From the NCBI GenBank assembly GCA_964429865.1, contig CAYSDK010000001.1, positions 1 to 60,892 of the forward strand: DNA of 60,892 nucleotides, read 5' to 3'. This DNA is from an uncultured bacterium (GTDB lineage: Bacteria > Methylomirabilota > Methylomirabilia > Methylomirabilales > CSP1-5). Of this stretch, positions 1,069-18,841 are shown piece by piece; position 1 is the first letter of the stretch; each line of letters opens with the position of its first letter. A program made the position numbers and the translations under genes. Under the pieces are notes generated by a model that was given only the letters and a program-made list of their open reading frames with translations, made no database searches and was not told the DNA's origin.

Positions 1069-1100
1069 TTGACAGCCCCGGAGGCGTTTGGTCTTATAGA
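1069..1100 (+). promoter_or_regulatory. candidate sigma70-type promoter for the riboswitch-controlled operon
   Basis: TTGACA at 1069-1074 is followed 17-20 nt later by the A/T-rich 'tcttataga'. This sits ~25 nt upstream of riboswitch helix P1. Confidence 0.4.
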
Positions 1101-1122
1101 GCGACAATTGAATAGAAGTTCA

Positions 1123-1306
1123 CTTCTCATCAAGAGCGGCTGAGGGACAGGCCCTAGGAAGCCGCGGCAACGGTCCCGCCGACCTGGTCGGCGGGAAGAC
1201 GTGCCAACTCCTACATCCCGATCTCGCGTGTCGGGGTGAGAGATGAGAAGGTGGATGCGCAGACGTCGTGCAAACCCCTTCTCATGCGGAGAAGGGGCTT
1301 TTTTTT
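1123..1306 (+). promoter_or_regulatory. SAM-I (S-box) riboswitch: aptamer 1123-1250 plus terminator/antiterminator expression platform
   Basis: Helix P1 pairs cuucucauc (1123-1131) with gaugagaag (1242-1250). The conserved core is present: AUCAAGAG-GG-GAGGGAC-GGCCC--GAAGCC--GCAAC ... GUGCCAA-UCC ... AGAGAUGAG. The P1 3' strand (1243-1251) can alternatively pair with the terminator 5' arm (ccuucucau, 1277-1285), which is the classic SAM-off design. Confidence 0.9.
1275..1306 (+). terminator. intrinsic terminator of the SAM riboswitch expression platform
   Basis: Stem ccccttctc (1275-1283) / gagaagggg (1289-1297) with loop atgcg, followed by c + T8 (1298-1306). Confidence 0.85.
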
Positions 1307-1319
1307 GGAGTGAACGAGT

Positions 1320-1547
1320 ATGGCGACGCGACGGTGGTCGTTGACATACCCCTCGAAGCTCATCAAAGAACCGGTGCTGTACCGGGTGGCGAAGGACTTC
1401 AAGCTCGTCCCCAACATCCGGAAGGCCCGGGTGACCGAGACGACCGGCGAGGTGCTCGTCGATTTTTCCGGCAAGGAGGAGGACCTCAAGAAGGGATTGA
1501 ACTATCTCACCGGTCTCGGGATCACGGTGAAGGAAGTGCGGGAGTAG
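1320..1547 (+). CDS. stand-alone NIL-domain protein, copy 2 (first gene downstream of the SAM riboswitch)
   Basis: 75 aa and paralogous to 787..1059. A GGAG SD lies 8 nt upstream of the ATG. Confidence 0.75.
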   Translation: MATRRWSLTYPSKLIKEPVLYRVAKDFKLVPNIRKARVTETTGEVLVDFSGKEEDLKKGLNYLTGLGITVKEVRE

Positions 1548-1566
1548 TCGCGATCAGGAGGGTTCG

Positions 1567-2847
1567 ATGGCCAAGATCAAAGGGCTGAAGTGCCGCGAGT
1601 GCGGTCGCCCGTATCCGGCCGAGCCGCTGCATGTCTGCGAATTCTGCTTTGGCCCGCTCGAAGTCGAGTACGATTACGCGAGCCTGCAGAAGACCGTCAC
1701 TCGCAAGCGGATCGAGGCCGGCCCGCCGAGCATGTGGCGGTATCGCGACCTGCTTCCCGTCGACGAGGAGCTGTCGGTGGGGAGGCACTGCGGCATGACC
1801 CCCCTGATCCGGGCGAGGAACCTCGCCGACGCCTTGGGGGCCAAGGAGGTGTACATCAAGAACGATGCGGTCTGCCATCCCACCCTCTCCTTTAAGGATC
1901 GGGTGGTGGCGGTCGCGGTGACCAAGGCGATGGAATTCGGCTTCACCGTGGTCGCCTGCGCCTCGACAGGAAACCTGGCCAACTCCGTCGCCGCCCATGC
2001 GGCCGAGGCAAGGCTGAAGAGTTTCATCTTTATCCCGGCCGACCTGGAGCAGGGCAAGATCGTCGGCACCCTGATCTATGACCCGGTGCTGGTGGCCGTG
2101 GATGGCAACTACGACGAGGTTAACCGCCTCTGCAGCGAGGTGGCCGACAAGTATGGCTGGGCCTTTGTGAATATCAACATCCGGCCGTACTACGCGGAGG
2201 GGTCCAAGAGCTTCGGCTACGAGATTGTCGAGCAGCTCGGCTGGCGCACGCCCCGACATATCGTGGTCCCCGCGGCCGGTGGGTCGCTCGTCACGAAGAT
2301 CTGGAAGGCGCTCAAGGAGTTTCACGGGTTGGGATTGATCCCGGACTGTGCAACCCGGATGCATGTGGCCCAGGCAGCGGGCAGCAGTCCCATCGCGACG
2401 GCCATTCGCAACCGGTCCGAGACCATCCGCCCGGTCCGCCCCAACACGATTTGCAAGTCGTTGGCCATCGGCAACCCGGCAGACGGATACTATGCGTACA
2501 AGGCGGTCGAGGAGAGTCGGGGCTACGCCGCGGACGCGAGCGACGAAGAGATCATTAATGGGATGACCCTCCTCGCCGCGACCGAGGGGATCTTCACCGA
2601 AACCGCCGGTGGGGTCACGGTAGCCGCCGCCAAACGGCTTCTGGAGGACGGCGTCATCCCCCGCGACGAGAGCGTCGTGCTCTCGATCACCGGAAACGGG
2701 CTCAAGACACAGGAGGTGGTGGGAGGCGTCCTCAAACCACCCCTTTCCATCAAGCCGACTCTAAAATCGTTTGACGCGGTGATCGCGGAACGGCCGGATC
2801 TCGGGGCCGATGTCGTCTCCAGGGCTTCGAACGCCCGTCGTGGATAG
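1567..2847 (+). CDS. thrC: threonine synthase family PLP enzyme with N-terminal zinc ribbon (ThrC-like; possibly a MetM-type O-phosphohomoserine-dependent homocysteine synthase)
   Basis: N-terminal CRECG...CEFCFG zinc ribbon. PLP-lysine motif HPTLSFKDR. Glycine-rich loops CASTGN and GSS. AGGAGG SD. 426 aa. Confidence 0.85.
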   Translation: MAKIKGLKCRECGRPYPAEPLHVCEFCFGPLEVEYDYASLQKTVTRKRIEAGPPSMWRYRDLLPVDEELSVGRHCGMTPLIRARNLADALGAKEVYIKNDAVCHPTLSFKDRVVAVAVTKAMEFGFTVVACASTGNLANSVAAHAAEARLKSFIFIPADLEQGKIVGTLIYDPVLVAVDGNYDEVNRLCSEVADKYGWAFVNINIRPYYAEGSKSFGYEIVEQLGWRTPRHIVVPAAGGSLVTKIWKALKEFHGLGLIPDCATRMHVAQAAGSSPIATAIRNRSETIRPVRPNTICKSLAIGNPADGYYAYKAVEESRGYAADASDEEIINGMTLLAATEGIFTETAGGVTVAAAKRLLEDGVIPRDESVVLSITGNGLKTQEVVGGVLKPPLSIKPTLKSFDAVIAERPDLGADVVSRASNARRG

Positions 2848-2862
2848 GGGAGGGAGAACCGC

Positions 2863-3138
2863 ATGAGCGTCCTCGTCCGGATTCCGACACCCCTCCGAAC
2901 CCTGACCAACGGACAGGCCGAGGTTCAAGCAGAAGGGAGCTCTATCCGGGAGCTGATCGACAACCTGGAGGGGCGTTACCAGGGATTGAAAGAACGGCTC
3001 TGTGAGGGGAAGGACATCCGCCGCTTCATTAATGTCTACGTGAACGAAGAGGATATCCGATTCCTCCAAGGCACCGCGACCCCGCTGAAACCCGGAGATC
3101 GGGTTTCCATCGTTCCTGCCATCGCCGGAGGGAGATAA
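2863..3138 (+). CDS. MoaD/ThiS-family ubiquitin-like sulfur-carrier protein, C-terminus ...AIAGG-R
   Basis: 91 aa with beta-grasp family features: LRTLTNG, an FINVYVNEE-type core, [17 protein letters not shown], then one extra Arg before the stop. Strong SD (GGGAGGGAG). Confidence 0.8.
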
Positions 3139-3158
3139 TTCCATCCCAACACATATGC

Positions 3159-3203
3159 AGGCCAAGTGTCAGGCCGAGATCCCGACACTTGGCCTTTTCT
3201 TTT
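3159..3203 (+). terminator. intrinsic terminator closing the NIL-thrC-moaD-like operon
   Basis: 12-bp stem aggccaagtgtc (3159-3170) / gacacttggcct (3184-3195), followed by ttttcttttg. Confidence 0.8.
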
Positions 3204-3665
3204 GCGATAGGGGTGGCTTGGTCTGGGTTTTGCAGAACGGTTGCGACGCGTGAATCAAAAAGGAAAGGGGGTGAGACAGGTGGATCGAAAGGGACACAAC
3301 CCGAAGGCGTGGTACGAGCGCGAGGAGCGTCGTGGCCTCAAGCGGTCGCAGCCCAGACGGACGCGCAAGGAGGGAGAAAAGGAGGGGAAGAAAGGCGGCG
3401 GAGGGAGAACCACCCCGGAGGAATGGTGGGAGAAAAACTCTTGACATAGCCGCTTCCCTTCCCGCATCTTTGGTGTCAGGGCGATCGAATGAGCGCTCGG
3501 TCAATCTCCCTGCAGCCTATCCTCTATTATATTATTATTATCTGATCTACCAGGGCATCTTTTTGCGGTCACGGATCTGGTCCTTGGGGGATCATGAATC
3601 ACTCAAGCGTCAAAAGAGCCCTCCCGTCGAACCGAAGGTTCCCTCGTTAAAGTAATGGATGAACA

Positions 3666-4547
3666 ATGACGGGCGAAGCGGCGCTGAGGACGGACATTAA
3701 GGTCATCGGCGTGGTCGGGGCTGGGACCATGGGTCACGGCATCGCCCAGGTGGCCCTGCAGTCTGGATTGCAGGTTTTCCTGCACGATCTGGAAGAGGCG
3801 ATTCTGAAGCGGGCCCGAGAGCGCATCGCGGCAGGCCTTGCCAAGGGGGTGAGGAGGGGAAAGTTCGGCGAGGACGAAAAGGAAGAAATGCTCAAGGGGC
3901 TCGTCCTCACGATCACCCCGTTGGATCTATCCGCCGCCGACTTTGTGATCGAGGCGGTCATCGAGGACTTGGCCGTCAAGCGGACCCTATTTCAGGACCT
4001 GGACCGGATCGCGAGACCCGAAGTCATCCTGGCCACCAACACCTCCTCACTCCCCATTACAAAAATCGCCTCGACGACCTCCCGGCCATTCCAAGTCATC
4101 GGCATGCACTTTTTCAACCCGGTCCCGCTGATGCCCTTGGTCGAGGTGATCCGCGGGCTCGCCACCGCTGACGAGACGGTCACGGCCACGGTCCGGCTGG
4201 CAGAGCGACTCGGGAAGACCCCGGTGGAGGTCCGCGACAGTCCCGGCTTCATCTCGAGCCGCATCCTTGCATCCATGGTCAACGAAGCGTGCTATCTTCT
4301 CATGGAGGGGGTCGGCACCGCCGAGGCGATCGACACCGTGATGAAGCTGGGGGCCAACCATCCGATGGGCCCGTTGGCGCTCGGCGATCTGATCGGCCTC
4401 GACGTCTGCCTGGCCGTCATGCGGACGCTGTACGAGGGGATCGGCGATCCCAAGTACCGTCCCTGCCCCCTGCTGGTCCAGATGGTGGACGCGGGGTATC
4501 TGGGGCGAAAGAGTGGGCGGGGGTTTTACACCTACGAGAAGGGCTAG
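3666..4547 (+). CDS. hbd: 3-hydroxybutyryl-CoA (3-hydroxyacyl-CoA) dehydrogenase, NAD-binding
   Basis: N-terminal Rossmann motif IGVVGAGTMGHGIAQ. HFFNPVP motif. C-terminal 3HCDH domain (MGPLALGDLIGLD). Confidence 0.9.
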   Translation: MTGEAALRTDIKVIGVVGAGTMGHGIAQVALQSGLQVFLHDLEEAILKRARERIAAGLAKGVRRGKFGEDEKEEMLKGLVLTITPLDLSAADFVIEAVIEDLAVKRTLFQDLDRIARPEVILATNTSSLPITKIASTTSRPFQVIGMHFFNPVPLMPLVEVIRGLATADETVTATVRLAERLGKTPVEVRDSPGFISSRILASMVNEACYLLMEGVGTAEAIDTVMKLGANHPMGPLALGDLIGLDVCLAVMRTLYEGIGDPKYRPCPLLVQMVDAGYLGRKSGRGFYTYEKG

Positions 4548-4551
4548 CGAC

Positions 4552-5334
4552 GTGGAGTACAAGCATCTCATCTATGAGGCGGCTTCTGGGATCGCCACCA
4601 TCACGCTGAACCGCCCGAAGGTCATGAACGCCCTGAGCCTGGCGCTCGCTCGGGAGCTCCTGCAGGCCGCCACCCGGGCCGAAGGCAATCCCGCCATCCG
4701 TGCCCTGATTGTCACCGGCGCCGGCGAGAGGGCCTTTGCCGCCGGAGCAGATATCGCTGCCTTCAGGAACATGGGCGCGGGAGAGGCCCTGGGCTTTCTC
4801 ACAGAGGTCCAGGCCGTGATGAATCGGATCGAACGGCTGAAGAAGCCGGTCCTGGCCGCCGTGAACGGGTATGCGCTGGGCGCCGGCTGTGAGCTGGCCA
4901 TGGCCTGCGACATGATCTATGCCGCCGAGACGGCGAAGTTCGGCCTGCCGGAGGTGAATCTGGGGATCATCCCGGGCGGGGGCGGGACCCAGCGCCTCCC
5001 CCGTCGTGTCGGAGGTGCGCGGGCGAAGGAATTGATCTATACCGGCGAGATGATCGACGCGCAGGAGGCGTACCGGATCGGCCTGGTGAACAGGGTGTTC
5101 CCTGCCCCAGAGCTCATGGCCGGGACGAGGAAGCTGGCCGAAAAGATCGCCCTCAAGGGCGCGGGTGCGATCGAATCCGCCAAGAAGGCTATCACCGAGG
5201 GGGCGGACCTCGATCTCAAGCGGGCACTGGCGCTCGAGGCCAAGGCCTGCGCGCTGTGCTTTGACACCGAGGACAAAACAGAAGGGGTGAGCGCCTTCCT
5301 CGAGAAGCGGGAGCCCCGCTTCAAGGGAAGATAG
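4552..5334 (+). CDS. crt: enoyl-CoA hydratase (crotonase family)
   Basis: [25 protein letters not shown] and [16 protein letters not shown] motifs. The start is set at GTG 4552, just after the hbd stop; the longer ORF from 4513 would overlap hbd. Confidence 0.88.
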
Positions 5335-5346
5335 GCGGGGAGGGGC

Positions 5347-6486
5347 ATGGATCTCGGGTTGAGCCCACGGCAGGAGATCTTCCGGGACATGGTCCGGGAC
5401 TTTGCCGAGACAGAGGTGGCGCCCCGGGCCGCCGCCGTCGATGCAGAGGCGCGTTTCCCCGCCCAGACGATCAGGATGATGGGAGCGCTCGGCCTCATGG
5501 GGGTCGCCATCCCGGAAGAGTATGGCGGAGCGGGCGCGGATACGATCTGCTATGTCATCGCCATTGAGGAGATCAGCCGCGCCTGCGCCTCCACCGGGGT
5601 TATCATGTCGATCAATAACTCCATGGTCTGCGACCTCGTCCACAAGTTCGGCGATGAGCGGCAGAAGCGACGGTTCTTGATCCCTCTCGCCCGGGGTGAG
5701 CAGCTGGGCTGTTTCTGCCTGAGCGAGCCCGACGCCGGCTCCGATGCGGGCAATCTGCGCGTCACCGCGCTGGCCGAGGGCGATCACTTCGTCCTGAACG
5801 GAGTCAAGAATTTCATCACGAACGGCCGCGAGGCGGATATCGCCATCGTGTTCGCCACGGTCGACCGCCAGCTCAAGCACAAGGGGATCTCTGCCCTGGT
5901 CGTCGAGAAGGGGACGCCGGGATTTCAGGTGCTCAAGGAGGAGAGCAAGCTGGGGGTCCGGGGCAGCAGCACGTGCCAGCTTCTCTTCGAGCATTGCCGG
6001 GTCCCCCGGGAGAACCTCCTGGGAGAGATCGGCGAGGGCTTCAGGATCGCCATGGCCTCCCTCGATGGAGGCCGGATCGGGATCGCCGCACAGGCGGTCG
6101 GAATCGCCCGCGCCGCCCTCGAGGCCTCTCTCCAGTACGCCCGGGGCCGCGTCCAGTTCGGAAGGCCCATCGCCTCCTTTCAGGCCATCCAGTTCCTCCT
6201 CGCGGATATGGCGACCCGCGTCGATGCCGCGCGTCTCCTCACCTACCGGGCCGCCTCTCTGAGAGATTGCGGGGCCCCATACACCGCGGAGGGCTCCATG
6301 GCCAAGCTCTCTGCGTCGGAGGTCGCCATGTGGGTGACCACCAAGGCCATCCAGATCTATGGGGGATACGGGTATATCACTGACTACCCGGTCCAGCGCC
6401 ACTTCCGGGACGCGAAGGTCACCGAGATCTACGAAGGGACTTCAGAGATCCAACGGCTGGTCATCGCCGAACATCTCCTGGGATAG
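5347..6486 (+). CDS. short-chain (butyryl-type) acyl-CoA dehydrogenase
   Basis: ACAD N/M/C domains: CFCLSEPDAGSDA, KNFITNG, and YEGTSEIQRLVIA at the C-terminus. Good SD. Confidence 0.9.
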   Translation: MDLGLSPRQEIFRDMVRDFAETEVAPRAAAVDAEARFPAQTIRMMGALGLMGVAIPEEYGGAGADTICYVIAIEEISRACASTGVIMSINNSMVCDLVHKFGDERQKRRFLIPLARGEQLGCFCLSEPDAGSDAGNLRVTALAEGDHFVLNGVKNFITNGREADIAIVFATVDRQLKHKGISALVVEKGTPGFQVLKEESKLGVRGSSTCQLLFEHCRVPRENLLGEIGEGFRIAMASLDGGRIGIAAQAVGIARAALEASLQYARGRVQFGRPIASFQAIQFLLADMATRVDAARLLTYRAASLRDCGAPYTAEGSMAKLSASEVAMWVTTKAIQIYGGYGYITDYPVQRHFRDAKVTEIYEGTSEIQRLVIAEHLLG

Positions 6487-6509
6487 CCCCTGGAAGAATC
6501 GGGGACGTG

Positions 6510-7307
6510 ATGCGCATCGTCGTCTGTGTCAAACAGGTCATCGACCCAGAGCTTCCCGCCAGTCAGTTCCGCATCGATGCGGAGTCCAAACGGCAGCGGC
6601 CGAATGGCCACCCCCTCGTCATCAGCCCGTATGACGAGAATGCCCTGGAGGTTGCCCTCACGCTTAAGGAGAAGACGGGCGGCACGGTAGCGGTGGTGAG
6701 CGCGGGGGAGCCGTCGGCGATCAGCGCGCTTCGCAAAGGGCTCGCCATGGGCGCGGACGAGGCCGCCTTGATCAGCGATCCCGCCCTCGCCGGATCGGAT
6801 GCCTTCGGCCTCGCCGTCGCCTTGGCCCGCGGGATACAGAAACTCGGCACCCCCGATCTGGTCCTGTGCGGCTGTGAGTCCGGGGACTGGGCCGACAGGA
6901 CCGTGGGTCCCATCCTGGCCGAGGCGCTCGATATCCCATGCGTCTCCTTTGTGGCCCAGGTGGAGGCGCAGGACGGCCGGCTGCGCATGCGGCGCGTCGT
7001 GGAGGAGGGCTACGAGATCTGGGAGGGCGCGCCACCTCTGTTGCTCACCATTCTCAGTCACGAGTCGAATGTCCCCAGGTATCCAAAGGTCAAGGACATC
7101 ATGACCGCCTCCCGGCGATCGATCCCGACGTGGTCAGCCGGCGACCTGGGCGTCGAGGCCGGCGATATTGGGAAGGCGGCCATGCGAACAGAAGTCCAGC
7201 AGCTCACGCTTCCGAGTCGAGAGTCCCGCTGTGAGTTGCTGGACGGCCAGCCGGCGCAGCAGGTCACGACCCTGATCACGAGACTCCGCGAGCGGAAGGC
7301 GATCTAG
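6510..7307 (+). CDS. etfB: electron transfer flavoprotein beta subunit
   Basis: MRIVVCVKQVIDPE N-terminus typical of EtfB. A GTG at 6507 is an alternative start. Confidence 0.9.
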   Translation: MRIVVCVKQVIDPELPASQFRIDAESKRQRPNGHPLVISPYDENALEVALTLKEKTGGTVAVVSAGEPSAISALRKGLAMGADEAALISDPALAGSDAFGLAVALARGIQKLGTPDLVLCGCESGDWADRTVGPILAEALDIPCVSFVAQVEAQDGRLRMRRVVEEGYEIWEGAPPLLLTILSHESNVPRYPKVKDIMTASRRSIPTWSAGDLGVEAGDIGKAAMRTEVQQLTLPSRESRCELLDGQPAQQVTTLITRLRERKAI

Positions 7308-7309
7308 CC

Positions 7310-8290
7310 ATGCCCGGCATCCTTGTCCTCGGCACGATCGAGAACGGGGTCCCATCCCGCTCAACACTGGAGCTCTTGACCGGCGCGAAGAGACTCGCTG
7401 CGGGGCTTCAGGAAGGTGTCTCTGTCGGACTCCTGGGGCCAGGGGGTGCGGCGTCGCTGTACCGTTACGGGGTCGAAGTCGTCTACCGGGCCAATGATCC
7501 GCTCCTGAAGGAATATCAGGCGGATCTGTACCTGCTGGCGCTCCAGCGGATCGCCCAGGCCGCCGGCGCCAGGGTTCTCCTGCTGCCCGGAGACTCCCTC
7601 GGCCGGGACCTCGCCGCTCGCCTCGCCTTTCGCCTCAAGGCAGGCGTCGTCACGGACGTGATCGAGATTGACATCGAGGGCTCCGAAAAGATGCCGCGCT
7701 TCACACGCCCCGCGTACGGGGGCAAAGCGGCGGCGGTCATCGTTCCCAAGCGCTTTCCCGTCGTAGTGACCTTGAAGCCGCGGACCTTCGATCCCGCTGG
7801 ACCTGCGGGCCAGGGGGAAGGGAAGGAGGTCCCGGTCGAGATCTCATTGGATCCGGCCCAGGCCCGCACCCGGATGGTGGAGCGGGTCCAGGAGGAGACG
7901 ACGGGGGTCAAGCTCGAGGATGCACGGGCGGTGGTCTCCGGTGGCCGTGGACTCGGAGGGCCCGAGGGCTTTACCCTCCTGGTAGAGTTAGCCCGCATCC
8001 TTAAGGGGGCGGTGGGGGCGTCCCGGGCTGCGACCGATGCCGGGTGGGTTCCCTCATCGATGCAGGTCGGCCAGACCGGCAAGACCGTCAGCCCGGATCT
8101 CTATATCGCCGTGGGCATCTCGGGTGCGACCCAACATGTCGCGGGGATCAGCGGCGCCAGGACCATTGTGGCCATCAACGCCGATCCGGAGGCCCCCATC
8201 TTCAAGGTGGCTCACCTGGGGATCGTGGGGGATTACAAGGCCGTTCTCCCTCCCTTGATTGCGAAGTGCCGGGAACTCATGGGGAGTTGA
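7310..8290 (+). CDS. etfA: electron transfer flavoprotein alpha subunit
   Basis: C-terminal FAD-binding signature [28 protein letters not shown]. Directly follows etfB. Confidence 0.9.
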
Positions 8291-8293
8291 AGC

Positions 8294-10267
8294 ATGGAGC
8301 GCATCGCCTCGCGGGAGATCTACTGGAACATCCCGGAGCACCTGCTTCTCTACGTGCTGCTCCTGCCTTTCCTTGCTGTCTTCCTGTACGGGTGCTACCG
8401 ACGCTTTGGTGCTCTCCTGCTGGGGAGGAAGGGGGTACGGCTTGGTCAGCCGAAGGAGCGCCTGAAGGCCTTTGTTGCCCAGGCCCTCCTGCAAGGGCGG
8501 ATCGCCACAGAGCGGTATTCAGGGGTCATGCATCTCACCCTTTCCTGGGGATTTCTCGTCCTCTTCATTGCCACCACTCTCGTGGCCTTTCAGGACTACT
8601 TCGGCCTTCCCGTCCTCCAGGGTCGCTTCTACCTCTACTTCATGTCACTCACCGTGGACCTCTTCGGCGTCGCGGCGCTCTTGGGGACGCTGATGGCGGT
8701 CCTCCGGCGCTTCCTCCGTCCTCCGGCCCGCCTGGTGGAGCCGCGGCACGCCGACGGTTTCGGCTGGCTCCTCCTGCTCTTCTTAGCCGTCCTGGTGACT
8801 GGATTCCTCGTCGAGGGGCTCCGGATCATGGCGACGGCCGACCCATGGGGACCCTGGTCACCCGGAGGGTGGGTGACGGCGCTCCTCTTCCGGGGCATCG
8901 GCGTCGAGTATGCCCGGGCCTTTCACCAGGTCCTCTGGTGGGTCCATGCCGCACTCTCGTTCGGTTTCATTGCGGCGATTCCCTATACCGGCGTGCTTCA
9001 TCTCCTCACCGCCCCCGCCAACATCTTCCTGCGAAACCTCGAGCCCTCGGGTGTCGCAAGCCCCTTGGCGGTCGAGGCAGAGAAGCTCGGGGCCTCTTCG
9101 ATTCGGGATTTCTCATGGAAGGCGCTTTTGGATCTATACGCCTGCACCGAGTGTGGCCGATGCCAGGCGGTCTGTCCCGCCTGGACCACGGGAAAGCCCC
9201 TCACCCCCAAGGGGGTCATCCTCGATCTCCGGGACCACTTGACCAAGGTGTACCGGGGCGAGGAGACGCGGCGCATGGTGGGCGAGGTGATCACCGAGGA
9301 TGTCCTCTGGGCCTGCACGACGTGCGGGGCGTGCCATGAAGCCTGTCCGGTCCTGATCGAACCGATTCCGAAGATCCTGGAGATGCGCCGGCACCTGGTG
9401 ATGGAAGAGGCGACCTTCCCGGAGCAGATGCAAGAGACCCTCCGGAGCCTGGAGACGCGCGGGCACCCTTATAAGGGGGTAAGCGCCGGACGGACCGACT
9501 GGACCAAAGGGTTGCGGATTCCAGAGGCGGCGAAGCTCAAAGAGGTCGAGCTGCTCTTCTGGGTGGGCTGTGCGGGCGCCTTTGACGAGCGAGGGCAGCA
9601 GGTCACCCGGGCGATGGCGCAGGTGCTGGAGGCGGCGGAGGTGGAGTTCGCAATCCTGGGCAATGAAGAGCGGTGCACCGGAGATCCGGCCCGGCGGATC
9701 GGGAACGAGTATCTCTTTCAACTCCTCGCCCAGGAGAATATCGCAACACTCAATCGCTACCGGGTGAAGAAGATCCTGACCACCTGCCCGCACTGCTTCA
9801 ATACGATGAAGAACGAGTATGGCCAGTTCGGCGGGGAGTTCGACGTGGTGCACCACAGCCAGTTCATCGCCCACCTGCTGCGGGAGGGGCACCTGGGCCT
9901 GCGAAAACGATTCAGCGGGACGGTGGCCTTTCACGATCCGTGCTACCTCGGCCGCCACAACGGGATCTACGATGATCCGCGGTCGGTGATCGATCACTTT
10001 CCAGGGCTGCAGCGGGTGGAGATGCCCCGATGTCGCGAGAAGGGGTTTTGCTGCGGCGCCGGCGGCGGACTGATGTGGATCGAGGAGCGGATCGGCAAGC
10101 GAATGAATCTTGAGCGAACGGACGAGCTCCTGCAGACGGGAGCGGCGGTGGTGGCCACGGCCTGCCCGTTCTGCCTGACGATGATGACCGACGGCATCAC
10201 CGTGCGCGGGAAGAACCTCGCGGTCAAGGCGTTAGACCTGGCGGAACTGGTGGTGCGCGCGTTGTGA
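8294..10267 (+). CDS. membrane-anchored Fe-S oxidoreductase (NarI/DsrM-like TM domain fused to an HdrD/GlpC-like 2x[4Fe-4S] + two CCG domains); probable Etf:quinone oxidoreductase
   Basis: N-terminal ~250 aa contain several hydrophobic helices with conserved His. Ferredoxin motifs [12 protein letters not shown] and [15 protein letters not shown]-type motifs [16 protein letters not shown] and CPFCLTM. Located immediately after etfBA. Confidence 0.8.
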
Positions 10268-10273
10268 TAGTGC

Positions 10274-10322
10274 AGGACTCAGGACTGAGGGATGAGGACT
10301 GAGGGATGAGTGACCTGAGGTG
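10274..10322 (+). repeat. heptanucleotide tandem array A (7 in-phase heptads)
   Basis: The heptads are aggactc aggactg agggatg aggactg agggatg agtgacc tgaggtg. The array ends 4 nt before the ATG at 10327, and the last heptad supplies the SD-like GAGGTG. Confidence 0.85.
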
Positions 10323-10326
10323 ATAC

Positions 10327-11244
10327 ATGAGGATTGTGTCGTTATTGCCCAGCGCGACGGAGATCGTCTATCTGCTGGGACTGGGGGATCACCTCACCGG
10401 AGTGAGCCACGAGTGTGATTATCCCCGGGCGGCGCTTGGCAAGCGCAAGATCATTGCCCCTGCCTTCGAGAGCTCCGGGCTCAGCAGTCAGGAGATCGAC
10501 GGCAGTGTCCGGGCCTTCCTGGGGCGAAATGAGGGGATCTATCGGATCGATTTCGAGGCCTTGAAGGCGGCCGATCCCGACCTGATTGTGACCCAGGAGC
10601 TGTGTGATGTCTGTGCCGCCCCTTACCAGGATGTCGTGGAGGCGGCGACACACCTTTCGCGAAAACCCGAGATCCTTTCCCTGAACCCGCACCGTCTCGG
10701 GGATGTGCTCCAGGATGTCGAGCGGGTCGGGGAGGCGACGGGACGATTCCGCGAGGCAACGCAGGCTGTCGCCTCGCTCACCGAACGGATCGATCGCGTC
10801 GAGAAGCGGGCGGCCAACGCCAAGACCCGGCCACCCGTGGCGTGTCTGGAGTGGCTGGACCCGATCATGGCCTCGGGCCACTGGGTCCCAGAGATGGTGG
10901 CCCTGGCTGGCGGCAGAGAACCACTCGGAAAGGCGGGGGAGCCATCGGAACGGGTGCAGTGGGAGCGGGTCCTCTCCTGTGCACCCGAGATCCTGATCCT
11001 CATGCCCTGCGGCTTTTCCGTAGATCGGACTCTGGACGAGATCCACCTCTTGACCAATCGTCCGGGCTGGGAGGGCCTGCCGGCAGTGAGGCGGGGCAAG
11101 GTCTTTGCCGTGAACGGTCACGCCTACTTCAGCCGATCGGGACCGCGCCTGGTGGACGGAACCGAGATCTTGGCTCATCTCGTGCATCCGGAACTCTTCC
11201 GGGACCCGATTCCGGCAGGGGCAGCAACAACCGTTGACCGATGA
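10327..11244 (+). CDS. BtuF/FecB-type (periplasmic-binding-protein fold, cobalamin-binding-like) protein without a signal peptide
   Basis: It starts directly with the first strand-helix of the fold (MRIVSLLPSATEIVYLLGLGDHLTGVSHECDYP). No hydrophobic or basic leader and no lipobox. 305 aa. Confidence 0.7.
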   Translation: MRIVSLLPSATEIVYLLGLGDHLTGVSHECDYPRAALGKRKIIAPAFESSGLSSQEIDGSVRAFLGRNEGIYRIDFEALKAADPDLIVTQELCDVCAAPYQDVVEAATHLSRKPEILSLNPHRLGDVLQDVERVGEATGRFREATQAVASLTERIDRVEKRAANAKTRPPVACLEWLDPIMASGHWVPEMVALAGGREPLGKAGEPSERVQWERVLSCAPEILILMPCGFSVDRTLDEIHLLTNRPGWEGLPAVRRGKVFAVNGHAYFSRSGPRLVDGTEILAHLVHPELFRDPIPAGAATTVDR

Positions 11245-11298
11245 CCGGGGACCGATGACCGATGACGGATAACCGACGGCCGATGAACGATGACCGGG
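11236..11298 (+). repeat. heptanucleotide tandem array B (9 in-phase heptads, consensus GACCGAT)
   Basis: The heptads are gaccgat gaccggg gaccgat gaccgat gacggat aaccgac ggccgat gaacgat gaccggg. The array spans the TGA stop at 11242-11244 and the first codons of the mutase ORF. Confidence 0.85.
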
Positions 11299-12983
11299 AA
11301 GAGATAAAGCGGATCGAGGAAGCCGCGAGGGCCTGGGAAGCTGAAGTCCTGGATCCCGCGCTCGAGAGGTCGCCCGAGCGGGCCCGGGAGTTCCGGACCG
11401 TTTCGGGGCACCCCATCCGCAGGCTCTATACGCCCACCGATCTCGCCGACTTCGACTACACCCGAGACCTCGGCTTTCCGGGCCTCTCTCCCTTTACGCG
11501 GGGTGTCTACCCGACCATGTACCGGGGCAGGCTCTGGACCATGCGGATGTTCGCTGGGCACGGGGCCCCTGAGGAGACGAATCGGCGGTTCAGGTATCTC
11601 CTGGCACAGGGGCAGACCGGTCTGTCGGTCGCCTTTGACCTGCCCACCCTGATGGGGTACGACTCGGACCATCCGATGTCGCGAGGGGAGGTGGGGAAGT
11701 GCGGGGTGGCCGTCGACTCGCTGGCGGATATGGAGATCCTCTTCGACGGGATTCCGCTCCAGGACGTTACCACCTCGATGACCATCAACTCTCCGGCCGC
11801 GGTGCTCTGGGCCATGTACCTCGCGGTCTGCGAGAAACAGGGGGTGCCCTACGACCGCATCGGCGGCACCCTCCAGAATGACATCCTCAAGGAGTTCATC
11901 GCACAGAAGGAGTACGTCTTTCCCATCGAGCCCTCGATGCGCCTCGTGGTGGATACGATCCTCTTCGGGGCCCGACATCTGCCCCGGTGGCATGCGGTCA
12001 GCATCAGCGGCTATCACATCCGAGAGGCGGGGTCCACCGCGATCCAGGAACTGGCCTTTACGGTGGCCGACGGCATGGCGTATGTCGAGGCCACCATGAA
12101 GGCGGGGCTCGACGTCGATGCCTTCGCCCCTCGCCTCTCTTTCTTCTTTAATGTCCACAACGATTTCTTTGAAGAGATCGCCAAGTTTCGGGCCGCCAGG
12201 CGCGTGTGGGGGAAACTCATGCGAGAGCGGTACGGGGCAAAAGATCCGCGATCCTGGCTGCTCCGGACCCACGCCCAGACGGCGGGATGTGCGCTCACCG
12301 CCCAGCAACCGTACAACAACGTCGTTCGGGTAGCCATGCAGGCCCTGGCAGCAATCCTGGGCGGGGTGCAGTCACTCCACACCAACGCCCTGGATGAAAC
12401 GCGGGCCCTTCCCACCCAGGAGGCGGCGACGATCGCGCTCCGGACCCAGCAGATCATCGCTCACGAGACCGGGGTGACCCACACCATCGACCCCGTGGGG
12501 GGATCGTACTTCGTCGAAAGCCTCACGCGGGAGATCGAGGAGGAGGTCTGGAGCTATCTCCACAAGATCGATGACCTGGGGGGCATGGTCCGGGCGATCG
12601 AGCAAGGCTTCCCCCAGAAGGAGATTGTCGATGCCTCCTACCGGTACCAGCAGATGGTCGAGGCGGGGGAAGAGGTGGTGGTCGGCGTGAACCGGTTCGT
12701 CGCCGGGGCGGAGGAGCCGGTCTCCCTCCTTCGCATCGACCCGGAGCAGATTGCGGAGCAGCAGGTGGAGAGGATTCACCGCCTGAAGGGACGCCGGGAT
12801 AACGGAGGGGTCCAGAAGGCTCTGGACGGCCTCCGAAGGGCGGCAGAGGGGGAGGATCCCTGGGGTCAGGACCTCCTCATGCCTCGGATCCTCGAGGCGG
12901 TGCGGGCGTATGCAACCCTGGGAGAGATCATGGGGGTCTTTCGAGAGGCGTGGGGGGAGTACGTCGAAGCCGCCATCCTCTGA
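11262..12983 (+). CDS. B12-dependent acyl-CoA mutase, large (substrate-binding TIM-barrel) subunit; methylmalonyl-/isobutyryl-CoA mutase family
   Basis: Family motifs [51 protein letters not shown] and LHTNALDE. The start is ambiguous because it lies in heptad array B; an in-frame ATG also occurs at 11283. Confidence 0.88.
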
Positions 12984-13119
12984 TTGTCCATTGACGATCC
13001 AGTGAAAATGCGCTTTAAAGAGAGAAGGCGCTGTCTGCTTCAGGCAGCGGTGGATGACCACAAGCGGGGGGAAGGCGACCGGGGCCCTCTGCCAAGGATC
13101 GCCCCAGCTGAGCGATGCG

Positions 13120-13527
13120 ATGAGTGAAGAACGGAAGATCCGTGTCTTGGTGGCGAAACCGGGGCTCGACGGCCATGACCGGGGTGCCAAGGTGATTGCC
13201 CGGGCGTTCCGGGACGCGGGGTTCGAAGTGATCTATACCGGCCTTCGGCAGACGCCGGAGATGATCGTCAGCGCCGCGATCCAGGAGGACGTGGATGCCA
13301 TCGGCCTCTCCTGCCTCTCGGGAGCCCATATGTATCTCTTCCCCCGGATCGTAGAGCTGCTCCGTGAGCGTGGCGCGGACGATGTCGTCGTCTTTGGAGG
13401 CGGGACGATTCCCGACGAGGACATTGCAACCCTCAAGGAGGCAGGGATCGCCGAGATCTTTACTCCGGGAACCTCGACGTCGGTGGCAATCGATTACGTT
13501 CGGACGCACGTCCGCCAGCGGGCGTGA
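13120..13527 (+). CDS. acyl-CoA mutase small subunit (cobalamin-binding domain)
   Basis: [24 protein letters not shown] contains the DxHxxG B12-binding motif. GVSSL-type SCLSGAH and GGGTIP motifs. The ORF is open from 13054; the start is placed at ATG 13120 by comparison with typical N-termini. Confidence 0.85.
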
Positions 13528-13556
13528 CCTTCCGGCGTGAGAGACGGGGAAGTGGG

Positions 13557-14870
13557 ATGAGGCCCGTCTATGCGGTCTCGGGTGGTGTGTGCAAGTTCGC
13601 CAGGGCCCGCCCCGACCTCGACTTCCGGGGGATGGTCAAGGAAGCCTACGATTACGCCCTCACGGATCTCCACCTGACCCCCCAACACGCGCGGGAGATC
13701 GTCGACGGGACGATCTGCTCGTACTTCTCCGACCACTTCACCCGACAACTCAAGGCCGGCAGCATGGTGCAGGATTATCTCGGGCTCTGCCCCAAGCCTG
13801 GCAAGCGCATCGAAGGGGGGGGCGCGACGGGGGGCCTGGCCGTCCAGTCGGGCTGGGAGGCGGTGGCGTCGGGCCGGTTCGATATCTGCGTGGTGTACGG
13901 CTTCGAGACCATGTCGCGCGTCAATACCTGGAAGGGGAACGAGTTCATCGCCTTGGCCTCCGACACGAATTTCGATTACCCCGTCGGCGGCTTCTACTCC
14001 GGATACTACGCGATGATGGTGGTCCGCCACATGAAAGAGTTCGGGACCACCGTGGAGCAGATGGCGCTGGTGTCGGTCAAGAACCATCACAACGCCCTCC
14101 ATAACCCGTATGCCCAGAAACGGAGGCAGATCACGATCGAGGACGTGCGCCGGGCCGAGATGGTGGCCTGGCCGCTGACGATGCTTGACATTTGCGTCAT
14201 GTCGGACGGGGCGGCGGTGCTCATCCTCTGCAGCGAAGACGGGCTCAATACCTTGCACAGGGCCACGGGACGCACCCCGCTCCCTGCCAAGATTACCGGG
14301 GTGGGCGGTGGTCTCGACGCCATGCGGATGGCGGACCGGCCCCACGGGGAGGTGATTCTCCTGCCCCATGAGAGGCCGGAAGACTATCGGGGGCTGAAGT
14401 ATCCCGGGGTTCACTCCTTCCGGGCCGGGCGCGTGGCCGCCAAGGCCGCCTATCAGATGGCTGGAATCACGAATCCCCTTGAAGATTTAGACTTCATCGA
14501 GCTGCACGATGCCTACACCTCCTCAGAGGTCCAGACGTACGAGGACATGGGGCTCTGCAGGTACGGTGAGGGCGGAAAGTTCATCGAGAGGGGTACGCCC
14601 TTCATGCCGGCGGTCGATTACGGGTACCATTTCCCGGAACAGGGCCGGATCCCGATCAATCCCTCGGGTGGACTCATCGCCTGTGGCCACCCGGTGGGGG
14701 CGACCGGAATCATGCAGGGAGTGTTTGCCCTGTGGCAGCTTCAGGGGAGCATCCGCACGCACTTCGGGAGCGATGTCCTCCAGGTGAGGAATGCGAGGCG
14801 TGGAGCGATTCACAGCCACGCGGGCACCGGGACCTACGTGGTGATCTCGATCCTGGAAAGGGGCGACTGA
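13557..14870 (+). CDS. thiolase-fold (SCP-x/lipid-transfer-protein type) protein, apparently lacking the nucleophilic Cys
   Basis: SCP-x-type thiolase features: LDICVMSDGAAVLIL, NPSGGLIACGHPVGATG and HSHAGTG. At the position of the usual -ACASG- nucleophile loop the sequence is RIEGGGATGG. The start is set at ATG 13557, which has an upstream GGGGAAGTGGG SD. Confidence 0.75.
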   Translation: MRPVYAVSGGVCKFARARPDLDFRGMVKEAYDYALTDLHLTPQHAREIVDGTICSYFSDHFTRQLKAGSMVQDYLGLCPKPGKRIEGGGATGGLAVQSGWEAVASGRFDICVVYGFETMSRVNTWKGNEFIALASDTNFDYPVGGFYSGYYAMMVVRHMKEFGTTVEQMALVSVKNHHNALHNPYAQKRRQITIEDVRRAEMVAWPLTMLDICVMSDGAAVLILCSEDGLNTLHRATGRTPLPAKITGVGGGLDAMRMADRPHGEVILLPHERPEDYRGLKYPGVHSFRAGRVAAKAAYQMAGITNPLEDLDFIELHDAYTSSEVQTYEDMGLCRYGEGGKFIERGTPFMPAVDYGYHFPEQGRIPINPSGGLIACGHPVGATGIMQGVFALWQLQGSIRTHFGSDVLQVRNARRGAIHSHAGTGTYVVISILERGD

Positions 14871-14904
14871 TGCTTCCCTGTGTGAGGGGCGAGGGCTCAA
14901 GGCC

Positions 14905-15432
14905 GTGAGCGAGAACCGTGTGCCAGAGGAAGAAGAGGGGGCGGTCCTCTTCAGGGTACCGCTTCCGAAGGACCCGGGGGCGCTCAAGGACCTGACGCCC
15001 CTGATCATCAAGCACCACTATGAGATCGATTACATTCACAGCTACGCGCAGGACAGCCCCTTCTTTGCCGGGCTGGCCAACCAGCGACTTCTGGGGACCC
15101 GGTGCGGCAGCTGCAACTACACCTACGCGACACCGCGAGCGCATTGTATGGAATGCGGGCGACAGTGCGACTGGGTGGACCTTCCCCACGAGGGGCAGAT
15201 CCATACCTTTACCGTGTGTCACTACGGCAGTGAAGAGTTCCTGAAAGAGACCCCCTTCATTCTCGCCCTCATTGAGTTTGCCGGCGTGGATACCCTCTTC
15301 TTGACTCGGGTGGTCGGGCTCGACCCACAGGCCTCTTCGCTCGACTGGATCGGCATGGCCGTCAAGGCCAAATTCCGCCGGCTCTCCACGTTCCGTCCCA
15401 CCGACGTCTATTTCGTCCCCATCGGAACCTGA
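14905..15432 (+). CDS. DUF35 OB-fold / zinc-ribbon protein (thiolase-partner family)
   Basis: Zinc ribbon CGSCNYTYATPRAHCMECG followed by an OB-fold-like region. This is the typical pairing immediately downstream of an SCP-x-type thiolase-like gene. GTG start. Confidence 0.75.
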   Translation: MSENRVPEEEEGAVLFRVPLPKDPGALKDLTPLIIKHHYEIDYIHSYAQDSPFFAGLANQRLLGTRCGSCNYTYATPRAHCMECGRQCDWVDLPHEGQIHTFTVCHYGSEEFLKETPFILALIEFAGVDTLFLTRVVGLDPQASSLDWIGMAVKAKFRRLSTFRPTDVYFVPIGT

Positions 15433-15494
15433 GTCCCCGTTCGAGCCGAGGGTGGAGGGGTAGTGGGGCGGACCGAAAGCTGTCCTAATGGCAG

Positions 15495-15570
15495 GCAAAA
15501 ATACTTAATATTAAACATGAATGAATGATATATAAGTATTTGTATAATGTGATACTTATACTAGTCAATG
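15495..15570 (+). promoter_or_regulatory. AT-rich promoter/operator region upstream of the acd-meaB-CoA-transferase genes
   Basis: An AT-rich island in GC-rich DNA. TATAAT at 15543-15548. A 9-bp inverted repeat tataagtat (15531-15539) / atacttata (15552-15560) brackets it. An extra half-site atactta lies at 15501-15507. Confidence 0.5.
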
Positions 15571-15600
15571 AAGATCTAAGCAGGCCGCGGAGCTTGAGAC

Positions 15601-16752
15601 ATGGACTTCACGCTGAACGAGACGCAACGGGCAATCCAAGGGGTGGTCAGAGACTTTGCACGCCGGGAGATCATTCCGAAGGCGGCGGGGTACGATCAGC
15701 GGGAGGAGTTTCCTTGGGAGATTATCCGAGGTGCGGCGAGCCTCGGCCTTCTCGGGATCCTGGTGCCGGAGGGGTATGGTGGGGCCGGGATGGACTACGT
15801 GAGCTACGTGGCTATCCTCGAAGAGCTCGGTCGGGCCGATGCCTCTGTTGCCCTCACCGTCGAGGCGCATAATTCGCTAGCCGTCAACCAGATCCTCCTC
15901 TTCGGAACCGAGGAGCAGAGGCGGCGGTATCTCCCCCCATTGGCGAGGGGAGAGATGCTTTCGGCCTGGGCCCTTACAGAGCCGAGTTCGGGAAGCGACG
16001 CGGCCGCGATGCGCACCACGGCCGTCCGTCAGGACGACGCCTATGTGCTCACCGGGACCAAAAACTTTATCACCTCCGGAAGCATCGCCGGGGTGTATGT
16101 GGTTCTAGCCCTCAGCGACCCGACCCGCGGCTCCCATGGCATCTCTGCCTTTATCCTGGAAAGGGGGGCGCCCGGATTCTCTGTGGGTCGGCGAGAGAAG
16201 AAGCTGGGGGTCCGCGCCAGCGACACCGCCGAGCTCATCCTGGATCATGTGCGCCTTCCGGCGGAGAACCTCCTGGGAAAGATGCACCATGGGTTCATCG
16301 ACGCCCTCCAGGTCCTGGACGGCGGGCGGATCGGCATCGCCGCCCTGGCCGTCGGGTTAGCCAGGGCGGCCCTGGAGGAGAGCATCGCGTACAGCAAGCA
16401 ACGGGTGCAGTTCGGCCAGCCGATCAGCGCATTTCAAGCCATCCAATTTAAGCTCGCAGACATGGCGACCGCCATCGACGCCGCGCGTCTCTTGACCTAC
16501 CGCGCTGCCCTGCTGGCAGATCAGGGAAAGCCCTTCACCAAAGAGGCGTCGATGGCCAAGGTCTATAGTGCCGAAGCGGCCGTGGCGGCGGCGATCCAGG
16601 CGATCCAGATCCACGGGGGGTACGGGTACACGGTCGAGTATCCGGTCGAGCGCTATCTCCGGGATGCCAAGCTCTGCGAAATCGGTGAGGGCACCTCGGA
16701 GATGCAGCGCCTCATCATCGCGCGAGAGATCGTGGGCCGGGAGTATGTGTAA
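15601..16752 (+). CDS. acyl-CoA dehydrogenase (second, paralogous short/branched-chain type)
   Basis: ACAD motifs [18 protein letters not shown] and [13 protein letters not shown]. Paralog of 5347..6486. Confidence 0.9.
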
Positions 16753-16841
16753 GGGGAATTTCTCCTCGACAGGGTTTGGGATCCTGTGCTACATGTCAGG
16801 CATCATGTCCGCAAGCCGTGGAAGCGCGACGGGGATGATCC

Positions 16842-17780
16842 GTGGAGATCGTTGAAAGGATCCGACGGCAGGATGTCCGGGCGATCGCCCGTCTGATGTC
16901 CCTCGTCGAGAATAATGCCCCCGAGGCCACCGCCGCCCTGAAGGAACTCTACCCGATCACCGGACAGGCGTTCATCGTGGGGATCACCGGTCCACCGGGC
17001 TCCGGGAAGAGCACCCTGACCGATCAGCTCACGAAGGAGTTTCGCCGGGACGGAAAGACCGTCGGGATCATCGCCGTGGATCCCACCAGCCCCTTTACGG
17101 GGGGGGCGATTCTGGCCGACCGCATCCGGATGCAGCAGCACAGTCTCGATGCAGGGGTCTTCATCAGGAGCATGGCCACGCGAGGGCACCTCGGGGGGTT
17201 AGCCAAGGCCACGGGCGACGTGGTGAACGTGCTGGATGCGGCGGGGAAAGAGCTGATCCTCGTGGAGACCGTCGGGGTGGGCCAGGATGAGGTCGAAGTG
17301 GTCAAGACGGCCGATACGTGCGTCGTTGTCAGCGTCCCCGGTCTCGGGGACGATGTTCAGGCGATCAAGGCCGGGATCCTGGAGATCGCCGACATTTTCG
17401 TGGTCAACAAGGCGGACCGCGAGGGCGCGGACAAGACGGTGACAGAGCTCCAGGCCATGATGGGACTTGGCCCGGGGCGTTCGGACTGGAGCCCGCCCAT
17501 CCTGAAAACGGTCGCCACCCAGGGGCAGGGCATCGCCGAGTTGGCGCAGGGAATTTTCGCCCATCGGGCCCATCTGGACCGACGGGGCCTGCGGCAGATG
17601 CGCCAGCGCGAGCGGAGTCGTGCCCTCTTCCTCGAGCTGCTCCAGGAGCAGGGGACCCGGCGCCTGCTGGAGCGGGCGAGCGCCAACGGAACCCTTGAGC
17701 AGACGATCGAGCGCATCGCCAAGCGAGAGATGGACCCGTATTCCGCGGTCGAAGAGCTGCTCGCCAAGGCGGGCCTTTGA
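16842..17780 (+). CDS. meaB: MeaB/ArgK-type G3E GTPase (B12 mutase chaperone)
   Basis: P-loop GITGPPGSGKSTL, ETVGVGQ switch and VVNKADR motifs. GTG start with a GGGGA SD. Confidence 0.88.
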   Translation: MEIVERIRRQDVRAIARLMSLVENNAPEATAALKELYPITGQAFIVGITGPPGSGKSTLTDQLTKEFRRDGKTVGIIAVDPTSPFTGGAILADRIRMQQHSLDAGVFIRSMATRGHLGGLAKATGDVVNVLDAAGKELILVETVGVGQDEVEVVKTADTCVVVSVPGLGDDVQAIKAGILEIADIFVVNKADREGADKTVTELQAMMGLGPGRSDWSPPILKTVATQGQGIAELAQGIFAHRAHLDRRGLRQMRQRERSRALFLELLQEQGTRRLLERASANGTLEQTIERIAKREMDPYSAVEELLAKAGL

Positions 17781-17853
17781 CTCATGCCTATCGCATGCAC
17801 CCGTCCCCGGTGCCCCCCGTCATTTCTCGTGCCTGCACCACACGGATGTCCCC

Positions 17854-18822: not shown

Positions 18823-18841
18823 CGAAGCGGCAGGGTCGCCC

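Follow-up and report, generated by a model that had tools for sequence, protein, structure and literature searches.

A SAM-I riboswitch operon of a Methylomirabilota bacterium, encoding a threonine synthase-like enzyme, a sulfur carrier and a NIL-domain protein, probably serves thiocarboxylate-dependent homocysteine synthesis

Organisation of the locus

The DNA studied here is a stretch of 60,892 nucleotides (60.9 kb, 63% G+C; hereafter, the window) from an uncultured bacterium of the Methylomirabilota (NC10), an affiliation to which its protein homologs also point, contig CAYSDK010000001.1 of assembly GCA_964429865.1. Near its start, an S-adenosylmethionine (SAM) riboswitch of the SAM-I class precedes an operon encoding a NIL-domain protein (NIL2), a pyridoxal 5′-phosphate (PLP) enzyme related to threonine synthase (ThrC) and a sulfur carrier of the ThiS fold; the gene for a second NIL-domain protein (NIL1) is located upstream of the promoter-like element. 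The enzyme and the carrier are called MetM-like and MetO-like after the MetM/MetO pathway of Streptomyces albulus. The features of the locus are the following:

820-1059, + strand: NIL1, stand-alone NIL-domain protein of 79 amino acids, GTG start (PF09383, E=5.8e-15, 55.4 bits)
1069-1097, + strand: promoter-like element, read from the sequence
1125-1131 paired with 1242-1248, + strand: P1 helix of the aptamer, from folding
1243-1251 paired with 1277-1285, + strand: antiterminator helix, from a fold of 1240-1306
1275-1306, + strand: intrinsic terminator of the riboswitch, a 9-bp GC-rich stem and U8, from folding and a consensus scan
1320-1547, + strand: NIL2, stand-alone NIL-domain protein of 75 amino acids (PF09383, E=3.2e-13, 49.8 bits)
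1567-2847, + strand: MetM-like PLP enzyme of 426 amino acids, ThrC fold (PALP, E=2.4e-63)
2863-3138, + strand: MetO/CysO-like carrier of 91 amino acids, ThiS fold (PF02597, E=7.7e-19)
3159-3203, + strand: operon terminator, a 12-bp stem and UUUUCUUUU

The NIL2, enzyme and carrier genes are closely spaced, with a Shine-Dalgarno sequence before each, and a GGAGG motif stands 5 nt ahead of the GTG of NIL1 at position 820. Both NIL proteins score above the PF09383 gathering threshold of 24 bits. A first-pass annotation of this DNA had described a promoter-like element, an S-box aptamer with mutually exclusive terminator and antiterminator, and a strong 3′ terminator, together with genes for NIL, a ThrC-like PLP enzyme and a MoaD/ThiS-like carrier. 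All these elements were recovered at the same positions, the genes by their Pfam matches. The upstream paralog NIL1 had been overlooked, and NIL had been given no role.

The SAM-I riboswitch and its expression platform

The aptamer matched the SAM-I covariance model RF00162 at positions 1124-1249 (+) over the full length of the model (positions 1-108 of 108), with a score of 84.4 bits against a gathering score of 44.4 (E=1.6e-18). The covariance-model check proposed in the first-pass annotation was thus passed with 40 bits to spare. This aptamer was the sole Rfam match in the window, and a permissive Rfam scan of positions 1-1130 revealed no second regulatory RNA ahead of NIL1. Folded alone, it formed the S-box four-way junction (-65.7 kcal/mol, z=-5.3). 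In the antiterminator, the 5′ arm of the terminator (CCUUCUCAU) is paired with the 3′ arm of P1 (GAUGAGAAGG), and P1, antiterminator and terminator are mutually exclusive because these strands are shared. The terminator hairpin (1275-1297; -16.6 kcal/mol) was not equalled by any of 200 shuffled sequences and is followed by T8 at 1299-1306. A P1 3′ strand common to an antiterminator that competes with an intrinsic terminator is the arrangement of a transcriptional OFF platform, and the element is predicted to act as a SAM-dependent OFF switch.

The promoter-like element consists of a perfect -35 hexamer (TTGACA, 1069-1074), a 17-nt spacer and a weak extended -10 sequence (TGnTCTTAT, 1089-1097). 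A consensus promoter scan called nothing at 1069-1097; a T-run and the TTGACA are invariant in four relatives, the surrounding spacer being otherwise variable. At the distal end of the operon, the terminator hairpin (3159-3194; -23.5 kcal/mol, z=-4.8) is followed by TTTTCTTTT. A further terminator-like hairpin within NIL2 (1445-1461) is at chance level, with 4 such sites found against 2.1 ± 1.5 expected.

Conservation of the operon in related genomes

A genome scan for the enzyme gave matches in at least 600 species genomes. The best 80 (56-68% identity), which are not a random sample, were examined, and their neighbourhoods were annotated with locally built hidden Markov models (HMMs). These loci (loci of relatives are labelled with L numbers) span Methylomirabilota, Nitrospirota, Nitrospinota, Planctomycetota (including Brocadiaceae), Thermodesulfobacteriota, Chloroflexota, Verrucomicrobiota, Cyanobacteria, Aquificaceae, Actinomycetota, Omnitrophota and Elusimicrobia. 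A carrier gene adjoined the enzyme gene in 74 of them, and genes for a ThiF-type activating enzyme (E1) and for a JAB/JAMM protease were found near it in 24 and 15, respectively. Using a covariance model built from four SAM-I elements, we detected such an element directly upstream of the enzyme gene, on the same strand, in 23 loci, and the ten elements that were re-checked all passed Rfam with 72-96 bits; none was present upstream of the enzyme in the 18 cyanobacterial loci. Repeated SAM repression across phyla fits an enzyme of the methionine pathway and poorly fits a threonine synthase.

In L001, L003 and L086, whose enzymes are 74-87% identical to that of the window, the order NIL1, riboswitch, NIL2, enzyme, carrier is kept, and the operon directly follows a sulfate-assimilation cluster. 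In the close NC10 relatives L001 and L086, a cysK/M gene and a JAMM gene stand side by side in this cluster, at 7.5-10 kb ahead of the operon. The pair (L001 1032-2445; L086 1-524) encodes a cysK/M-type cysteine synthase (TIGR01136, 347 bits) and a JAMM/JAB protein and has no carrier gene of its own; cysteine and homocysteine synthesis may draw on one and the same CysO/MetO-like carrier. Positions 1-786 of the window gave no Pfam or Rfam match and no homology to the sulfate-assimilation genes that relatives carry upstream of NIL1, which indicates that synteny breaks at the 5′ edge of the window.

In the Aquificaceae locus L023, a MetM-like gene (148-1371) has no carrier gene within 8 kb downstream. 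Aquifex was noted to lack every homocysteine route known in 2018 (PMC5764234), and the MetM-like enzyme of Aquificaceae may fill this gap.

The enzyme belongs to a clade distinct from threonine synthases

The closest solved structures of the window enzyme are true ThrCs (about 190 bits). Its relationship to them was studied in a tree built from representatives of an exhaustive family search, genome-derived homologs and four crystallised ThrCs (Thermus thermophilus 1UIM, Mycobacterium tuberculosis 2D1F, Bacillus subtilis 6CGQ and Aquifex aeolicus 2ZSJ). The window enzyme fell in a clade with 100/100 bootstrap support, whereas the ThrCs formed a separate clade with the same support. Identity is 50-61% inside the enzyme's clade and 36-38% to the crystallised ThrCs. 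The phylogenetic comparison that the first-pass annotation had called for hence placed the enzyme outside the validated threonine synthases.

This separation is accompanied by sequence differences. Throughout the clade we found the motifs STGNL, N-x-N-x-RP(Y/F)YAEG(S/A)K and P-x-A-(S/G)-G-S, where ThrCs have STGNT, N-S-V-NP-x-R-x-EGQK and PVGNAGN; the fold and the SFKDR motif with the PLP lysine (K61 in T. thermophilus numbering) are common to both. In the same numbering, the clade-wide changes are T88 to L, R160 to Y and N188 to G, and the S155 region is remodelled with an insertion, while N154 is kept. T88, N154, S155, R160 and N188 are reported to belong to the substrate/product phosphate pocket of ThrC (Omi 2003; Murakawa 2011); T88, S155, R160 and N188 would presumably be the phosphate ligands behind product-assisted catalysis.

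The enzyme also has a four-cysteine Zn-ribbon at its N-terminus, ahead of the PALP domain. Its cysteines (C9, C12, C24 and C27; residues 9-27, encoded within 1567-1665) are invariant. This ribbon has no counterpart in canonical short ThrCs and is also present in other ThrC-like clades.

In three Nitrospirota genomes the gene order is MetM-like enzyme, ThiS, NIL and a second PALP gene, and this second gene is a canonical thrC located directly downstream of the other three (L014, 9853-10947; L016, 1959-3101; L018, 2138-3268). Its product shows all the canonical ThrC motifs, and in the tree it falls with the crystallised ThrCs. Two users of O-phosphohomoserine are therefore encoded within one cluster in these loci. 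The Nonomuraea chromosome, too, encodes a ThrC of the canonical type, which shares 64.6% identity with that of M. tuberculosis and whose gene is far from the MetM-like one. The first-pass annotation had judged SAM repression odd for a true threonine synthase; the recurrence of SAM-I across phyla and the coexistence of the clade with canonical ThrC agree with its reading of the enzyme. Altogether, the clade, its motifs and its regulation suggest that the enzyme is an O-phosphohomoserine-dependent homocysteine synthase.

The sulfur carrier and its processing partners

The nearest solved relatives of the carrier are CysO proteins, namely those of Amycolatopsis (4N6E_B, 4.5e-25) and M. tuberculosis (3DWG_C, 1.1e-21). 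Its C-terminus reads AIAGG-R, one residue beyond the Gly-Gly end. In HcyS, another carrier, a C-terminal extension is removed by a metalloprotease. Among the relatives, the carrier open reading frame (ORF) of L003/L004 extends 42 residues beyond Gly-Gly, L019 has a ThiS-ThiF fusion beside NIL, and L028 has three ThiS genes within one cluster.

A Pfam scan of about 55 ORFs and a motif scan found no gene for E1, JAMM, a second ThrC or MetX/Y/B in the window; the motif scan, with regular expressions for JAMM (HxHx7Sx2D) and ThiF-like motifs in six frames, gave no credible match. The first-pass annotation had likewise listed neither an E1 nor a JAMM protease, and within this scope its statement holds.

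NIL-domain proteins accompany the enzyme and the carrier

The two NIL genes flank the riboswitch, NIL1 being upstream of the promoter and NIL2 the first gene after the expression platform. As it lies ahead of both promoter and riboswitch, NIL1 is not SAM-controlled. Its position is kept in L001, L003 and L086, and NIL2 is likewise conserved in relatives. The two proteins are 37% identical and belong to different NIL subgroups, each of which also occurs elsewhere as the sole NIL or as a fused one; NIL2 groups with the carrier-fused NIL domains of L007 and L009. A tandem NIL-NIL protein is encoded in L032. A family search with NIL2 yielded 41 close relatives with inconsistent database names, some of them taken from MA1822.

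Of the 62 non-cyanobacterial loci, 42 (68%) had a NIL gene no further than 4 kb from the enzyme; the 18 cyanobacterial ones had none. Moreover, 8 loci, which represent at least five phyla, encode a carrier (...AIAGG) that runs in-frame, after 3-20 residues, into a NIL domain. A JAB gene was found near 8 of 9 NIL-fused carriers vs 4 of 44 carriers ending in GG, an enrichment that fits obligatory proteolytic release of the Gly-Gly end. Given its extra arginine, the window carrier would need the same trimming as the fused carriers. Among the papers searched, none mentions NIL domains together with sulfur-carrier proteins. These genomic data make a functional tie between NIL and the carrier a well-supported proposal.

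With regard to function, NIL1 is best matched among solved structures by the C2 domain of MetN, which binds methionine (3DHX, E=1.2e-5); a search of PDB sequences with NIL2 gave no significant match. The motif N-I-R-x-A is kept in at least 80% of 51 NIL domains and aligns with MetN N295-A299. In MetN, a hydrogen bond from N295 reaches across the C2 dimer to the bound L-methionine, and with the N295A change binding is lost (PMC6233128). The NIL proteins may thus act by sensing methionine or homocysteine.

Two other roles were discarded. A function of NIL as a persulfide carrier was ruled out by the absence of any conserved cysteine, and the DUF39/NIL-ferredoxin (MA1821/MA1822) pathway by the absence of a ferredoxin domain in the NIL proteins and of DUF39 in the window.

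Relation to the MetM/MetO pathway and proposed mechanism

The pathway of S. albulus (Hasebe et al. 2024, AEM 90:e01247-24) comprises MetO, Mec, MoeZ and MetM, and MetM depends on the MetO thiocarboxylate, as summarised in the GapMind 2026 preprint. According to PMC12172450, S. albulus metM has a SAM riboswitch upstream and metO adjacent. L005 of Nonomuraea gerenzanensis, the nearest actinobacterial relative, contains a SAM-I element (68.7 bits), the enzyme and a 91-aa carrier ending in GG; no NIL gene was found at this locus. Its enzyme and carrier are 51.5-51.8% and 54% identical, respectively, to those of the window, and this enzyme shares the clade motifs and falls in the window enzyme's clade. 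The riboswitch-enzyme-carrier layout of L005 matches the description of S. albulus metM/metO and so connects the window system to a known one; the resemblance to the Streptomyces pathway, which the first-pass annotation had pointed out, is supported through this clade-mate.

These data led us to conclude that the locus is probably a MetM/MetO-type operon of a Methylomirabilota bacterium, repressed by SAM and serving to make homocysteine in a thiocarboxylate-dependent manner. The first-pass annotation had put forward homocysteine synthesis by a ThrC-like enzyme and a thiocarboxylate carrier under SAM repression, and the clade, the motifs and the layout of L005 lend support to this proposal. Judged by its sequence features, the window system is one of the MetM/MetO kind already described (Hasebe 2024), to which a conserved NIL component is added.

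In the mechanism that we propose, at high SAM the P1 helix would form, the terminator at 1275-1306 would fold and transcription would end before NIL2, whereas at low SAM the antiterminator would form and NIL2, the enzyme and the carrier would be expressed. The C-terminal arginine of the carrier would be removed by a JAMM protease encoded elsewhere, and the Gly-Gly end would be adenylated and thiocarboxylated by an E1 of the MoeZ/ThiF type, also encoded elsewhere. The MetM-like enzyme would then exchange the phosphate of O-phosphohomoserine for the sulfur of the carrier thiocarboxylate, and homocysteine would be released, by analogy with CysM/CysO/Mec, and methylated to methionine. The NIL proteins would be carrier-linked accessory subunits; for these relatives of the MetN C2 domain, the most likely function is that of a regulator that binds methionine or homocysteine.

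The NIL partner is a component outside the described MetM/MetO pathway and a new element here. Tentatively, and with more doubt than for the operon as a whole, we suggest that NIL could be a third component of thiocarboxylate-dependent homocysteine synthesis in most non-cyanobacterial lineages. It might sense methionine or homocysteine in the manner of MetN C2, act on the carrier or the enzyme, and add feedback at the protein level to that of the SAM riboswitch; carrier-NIL fusions might be ubiquitin-like pro-proteins cut by JAMM to free the Gly-Gly end. If this were true, NIL would have one common role in MetN, in the DUF39 pathway and in MetM/MetO.

Several points weigh against the MetM/MetO assignment. 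The enzyme scores above the cutoff of the TIGR00260 'thrC' model (278.2 vs 167.1), although it remains below that of NF006050 (287.6 vs 303); the TIGR00260 family HMM does not separate MetM from ThrC. Orthology to S. albulus MetM/MetO is suggested indirectly, via the Nonomuraea homolog. No E1 or JAMM gene is present in the 60.9-kb window, an absence that says little because the window begins only about 820 nt upstream of NIL1. The suggested role of NIL draws only on genomic association and one conserved motif. Finally, PMC12172450 reports on a cyanobacterial member of the clade that acted in vitro as a threonine synthase and as a threonine deaminase and for which no MetM role was evident in vivo.

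Alternative explanations

Homocysteine might instead be formed from O-phosphohomoserine and free sulfide, as in the direct sulfhydrylation of plants, with the carrier and NIL either dispensable or only regulatory. Such a reaction would account for the 6 of 80 loci in which no carrier gene adjoins the enzyme (for example, L023 of Aquificaceae and L035 of Poribacteria), and in a study of Microcystis MetM activity was mimicked with Na2S, citing Hasebe (PMC12172450). However, an adjoining carrier is the rule in the remaining 74 loci, the recurrent linkage to ThiF and JAB and the carrier fusions that need processing indicate that the carrier is used, and the GapMind summary names MetM as dependent on the MetO thiocarboxylate. 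We consider the sulfide route strongly disfavoured.

The enzyme could also be a true threonine synthase from a divergent lineage, perhaps bifunctional with deaminase activity as well; the carrier and NIL genes would then be neighbours that serve another process. The TIGR00260 score, the 'threonine synthase' label given to the enzyme throughout the databases, the SFKDR lysine and fold shared with ThrC, and the activities of the cyanobacterial protein would agree with such a function. It is at odds with a SAM OFF switch ahead of the gene in 23 of 80 genomes from many phyla, with the adjoining carrier gene, with the clade-wide replacement of ThrC pocket residues and the fully supported separation of the clade, and with the canonical ThrC genes that lie beside the cluster in L014, L016 and L018 and at a separate site in Nonomuraea. 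A threonine synthase is, in our opinion, highly improbable.

That the operon serves a CysM/CysO-type cysteine pathway, or makes some other thiocarboxylate-dependent product than homocysteine, is scarcely credible: the carrier does match CysO of M. tuberculosis (1e-21) and Amycolatopsis, it may be shared with the cysK/M and JAMM genes of relatives that lack a carrier gene of their own, and some cysteine genes of Firmicutes are likewise under SAM-I control, but the enzyme is of the ThrC and not the CysK/M type (32.8 bits with the best cysteine synthase model, cysteine synthase A, against a cutoff of 387), the ground on which the pathway was rejected, a separate cysK/M already accompanies the JAMM gene in relatives, and homocysteine is the product of the nearest characterised system in which riboswitch, enzyme and carrier are arranged alike. 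Homocysteine synthesis of the MetM/MetO type is retained as the preferred explanation.

Other genes of the window

A stand-alone gene with a homocysteine S-methyltransferase domain is located 16 kb downstream of the operon (19636-20583, +; PF02574, E=1e-63), without a riboswitch of its own. Among NCBIfam models it best matches a bifunctional homocysteine methyltransferase/methylenetetrahydrofolate reductase, over the N-terminal half of the latter, and it is a candidate for the step from homocysteine to methionine.

Just past the operon terminator, an ORF at 3241-3444 (+) encodes 67 amino acids rich in Lys, Arg and Glu; at the corresponding place, L086 has an ORF of 97 amino acids without annotation. 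Pfam searches with this ORF and with those at 108-494 and 141-476 gave no match. The region 3666-19639 contains a large cluster for fatty-acid/branched acyl-coenzyme A (CoA) metabolism unrelated to the operon, with genes for 3-hydroxyacyl-CoA dehydrogenase, enoyl-CoA hydratase, acyl-CoA dehydrogenases, electron transfer flavoprotein alpha/beta, a Fer4/CCG oxidoreductase, methylmalonyl-CoA mutase with its B12 subunit and MeaB, and CoA transferases.

Significance

Hundreds of genes from at least ten phyla that are annotated as threonine synthase probably encode homocysteine synthases of the MetM type and would need re-annotation, among them those of NC10, Nitrospirota, anammox Planctomycetota, Chloroflexota, Verrucomicrobiota and Aquificaceae. 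Re-annotation would fill gaps in the methionine pathway in metabolic reconstructions of mostly uncultured organisms. The recurrent SAM-I elements constitute independent, cross-phylum regulatory evidence for a pathway whose tests have until now been confined to Streptomyces. Furthermore, the link to NIL, whose domain has been understood so far only in the MetN transporter, is a testable lead based on two paralogs, 68% co-occurrence and eight fusions enriched for a neighbouring JAMM protease, and it points to an unrecognised subunit or regulator.

Comparison with known systems

The window operon shares with S. albulus MetM/MetO a ThrC-homologous PLP enzyme misannotated as threonine synthase, an adjoining ThiS-fold GG carrier and a SAM riboswitch; in S. 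albulus the E1 and JAMM proteins are encoded elsewhere, and the window operon likewise lacks both. Unlike that system, it comes from the NC10/Methylomirabilota, has two NIL genes flanking the riboswitch and a carrier ending in GG-R, and in its relatives is placed right after a sulfate-assimilation cluster with cysK/M-JAB.

With the CysM/CysO/Mec system of M. tuberculosis the operon has in common a CysO-like carrier, the logic of a JAMM hydrolase and, putatively, a PLP enzyme acting on an O-phospho amino acid via a protein thiocarboxylate. On the other hand, the window enzyme has the ThrC rather than the CysK/M fold, its probable substrate is O-phosphohomoserine instead of O-phosphoserine, and the operon has riboswitch control and a NIL partner. 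Homocysteine synthesis dependent on a protein thiocarboxylate, which we propose here, would also be shared with the HcyS/HcyD/HcyF/MetY pathway of Wolinella succinogenes (Krishnamoorthy and Begley 2011). That pathway uses MetY, a fold type I O-acetylhomoserine sulfhydrylase, and not a ThrC-like enzyme, and has no NIL protein.

The NIL proteins of the window contain the same Pfam domain as MetN C2, the trans-inhibition domain, and as the NIL-ferredoxin MA1822, which belongs to the DUF39 homocysteine pathway. Conserved as well is N-I-x-x-A, the motif through which MetN contacts L-methionine, and the three contexts all concern methionine or homocysteine. In contrast to MetN and MA1822, the window NIL proteins are stand-alone (75-79 aa; carrier-fused in relatives) and have no ATP-binding cassette ATPase, ferredoxin or DUF39 partner. 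Finally, canonical ThrC and the window enzyme (36-38% identical) have the fold, the SFKDR motif and, most likely, the substrate O-phosphohomoserine in common, and they differ in that the window enzyme belongs to a separate clade, carries the additional N-terminal Zn-ribbon and is changed at the T88, S155, R160 and N188 positions.

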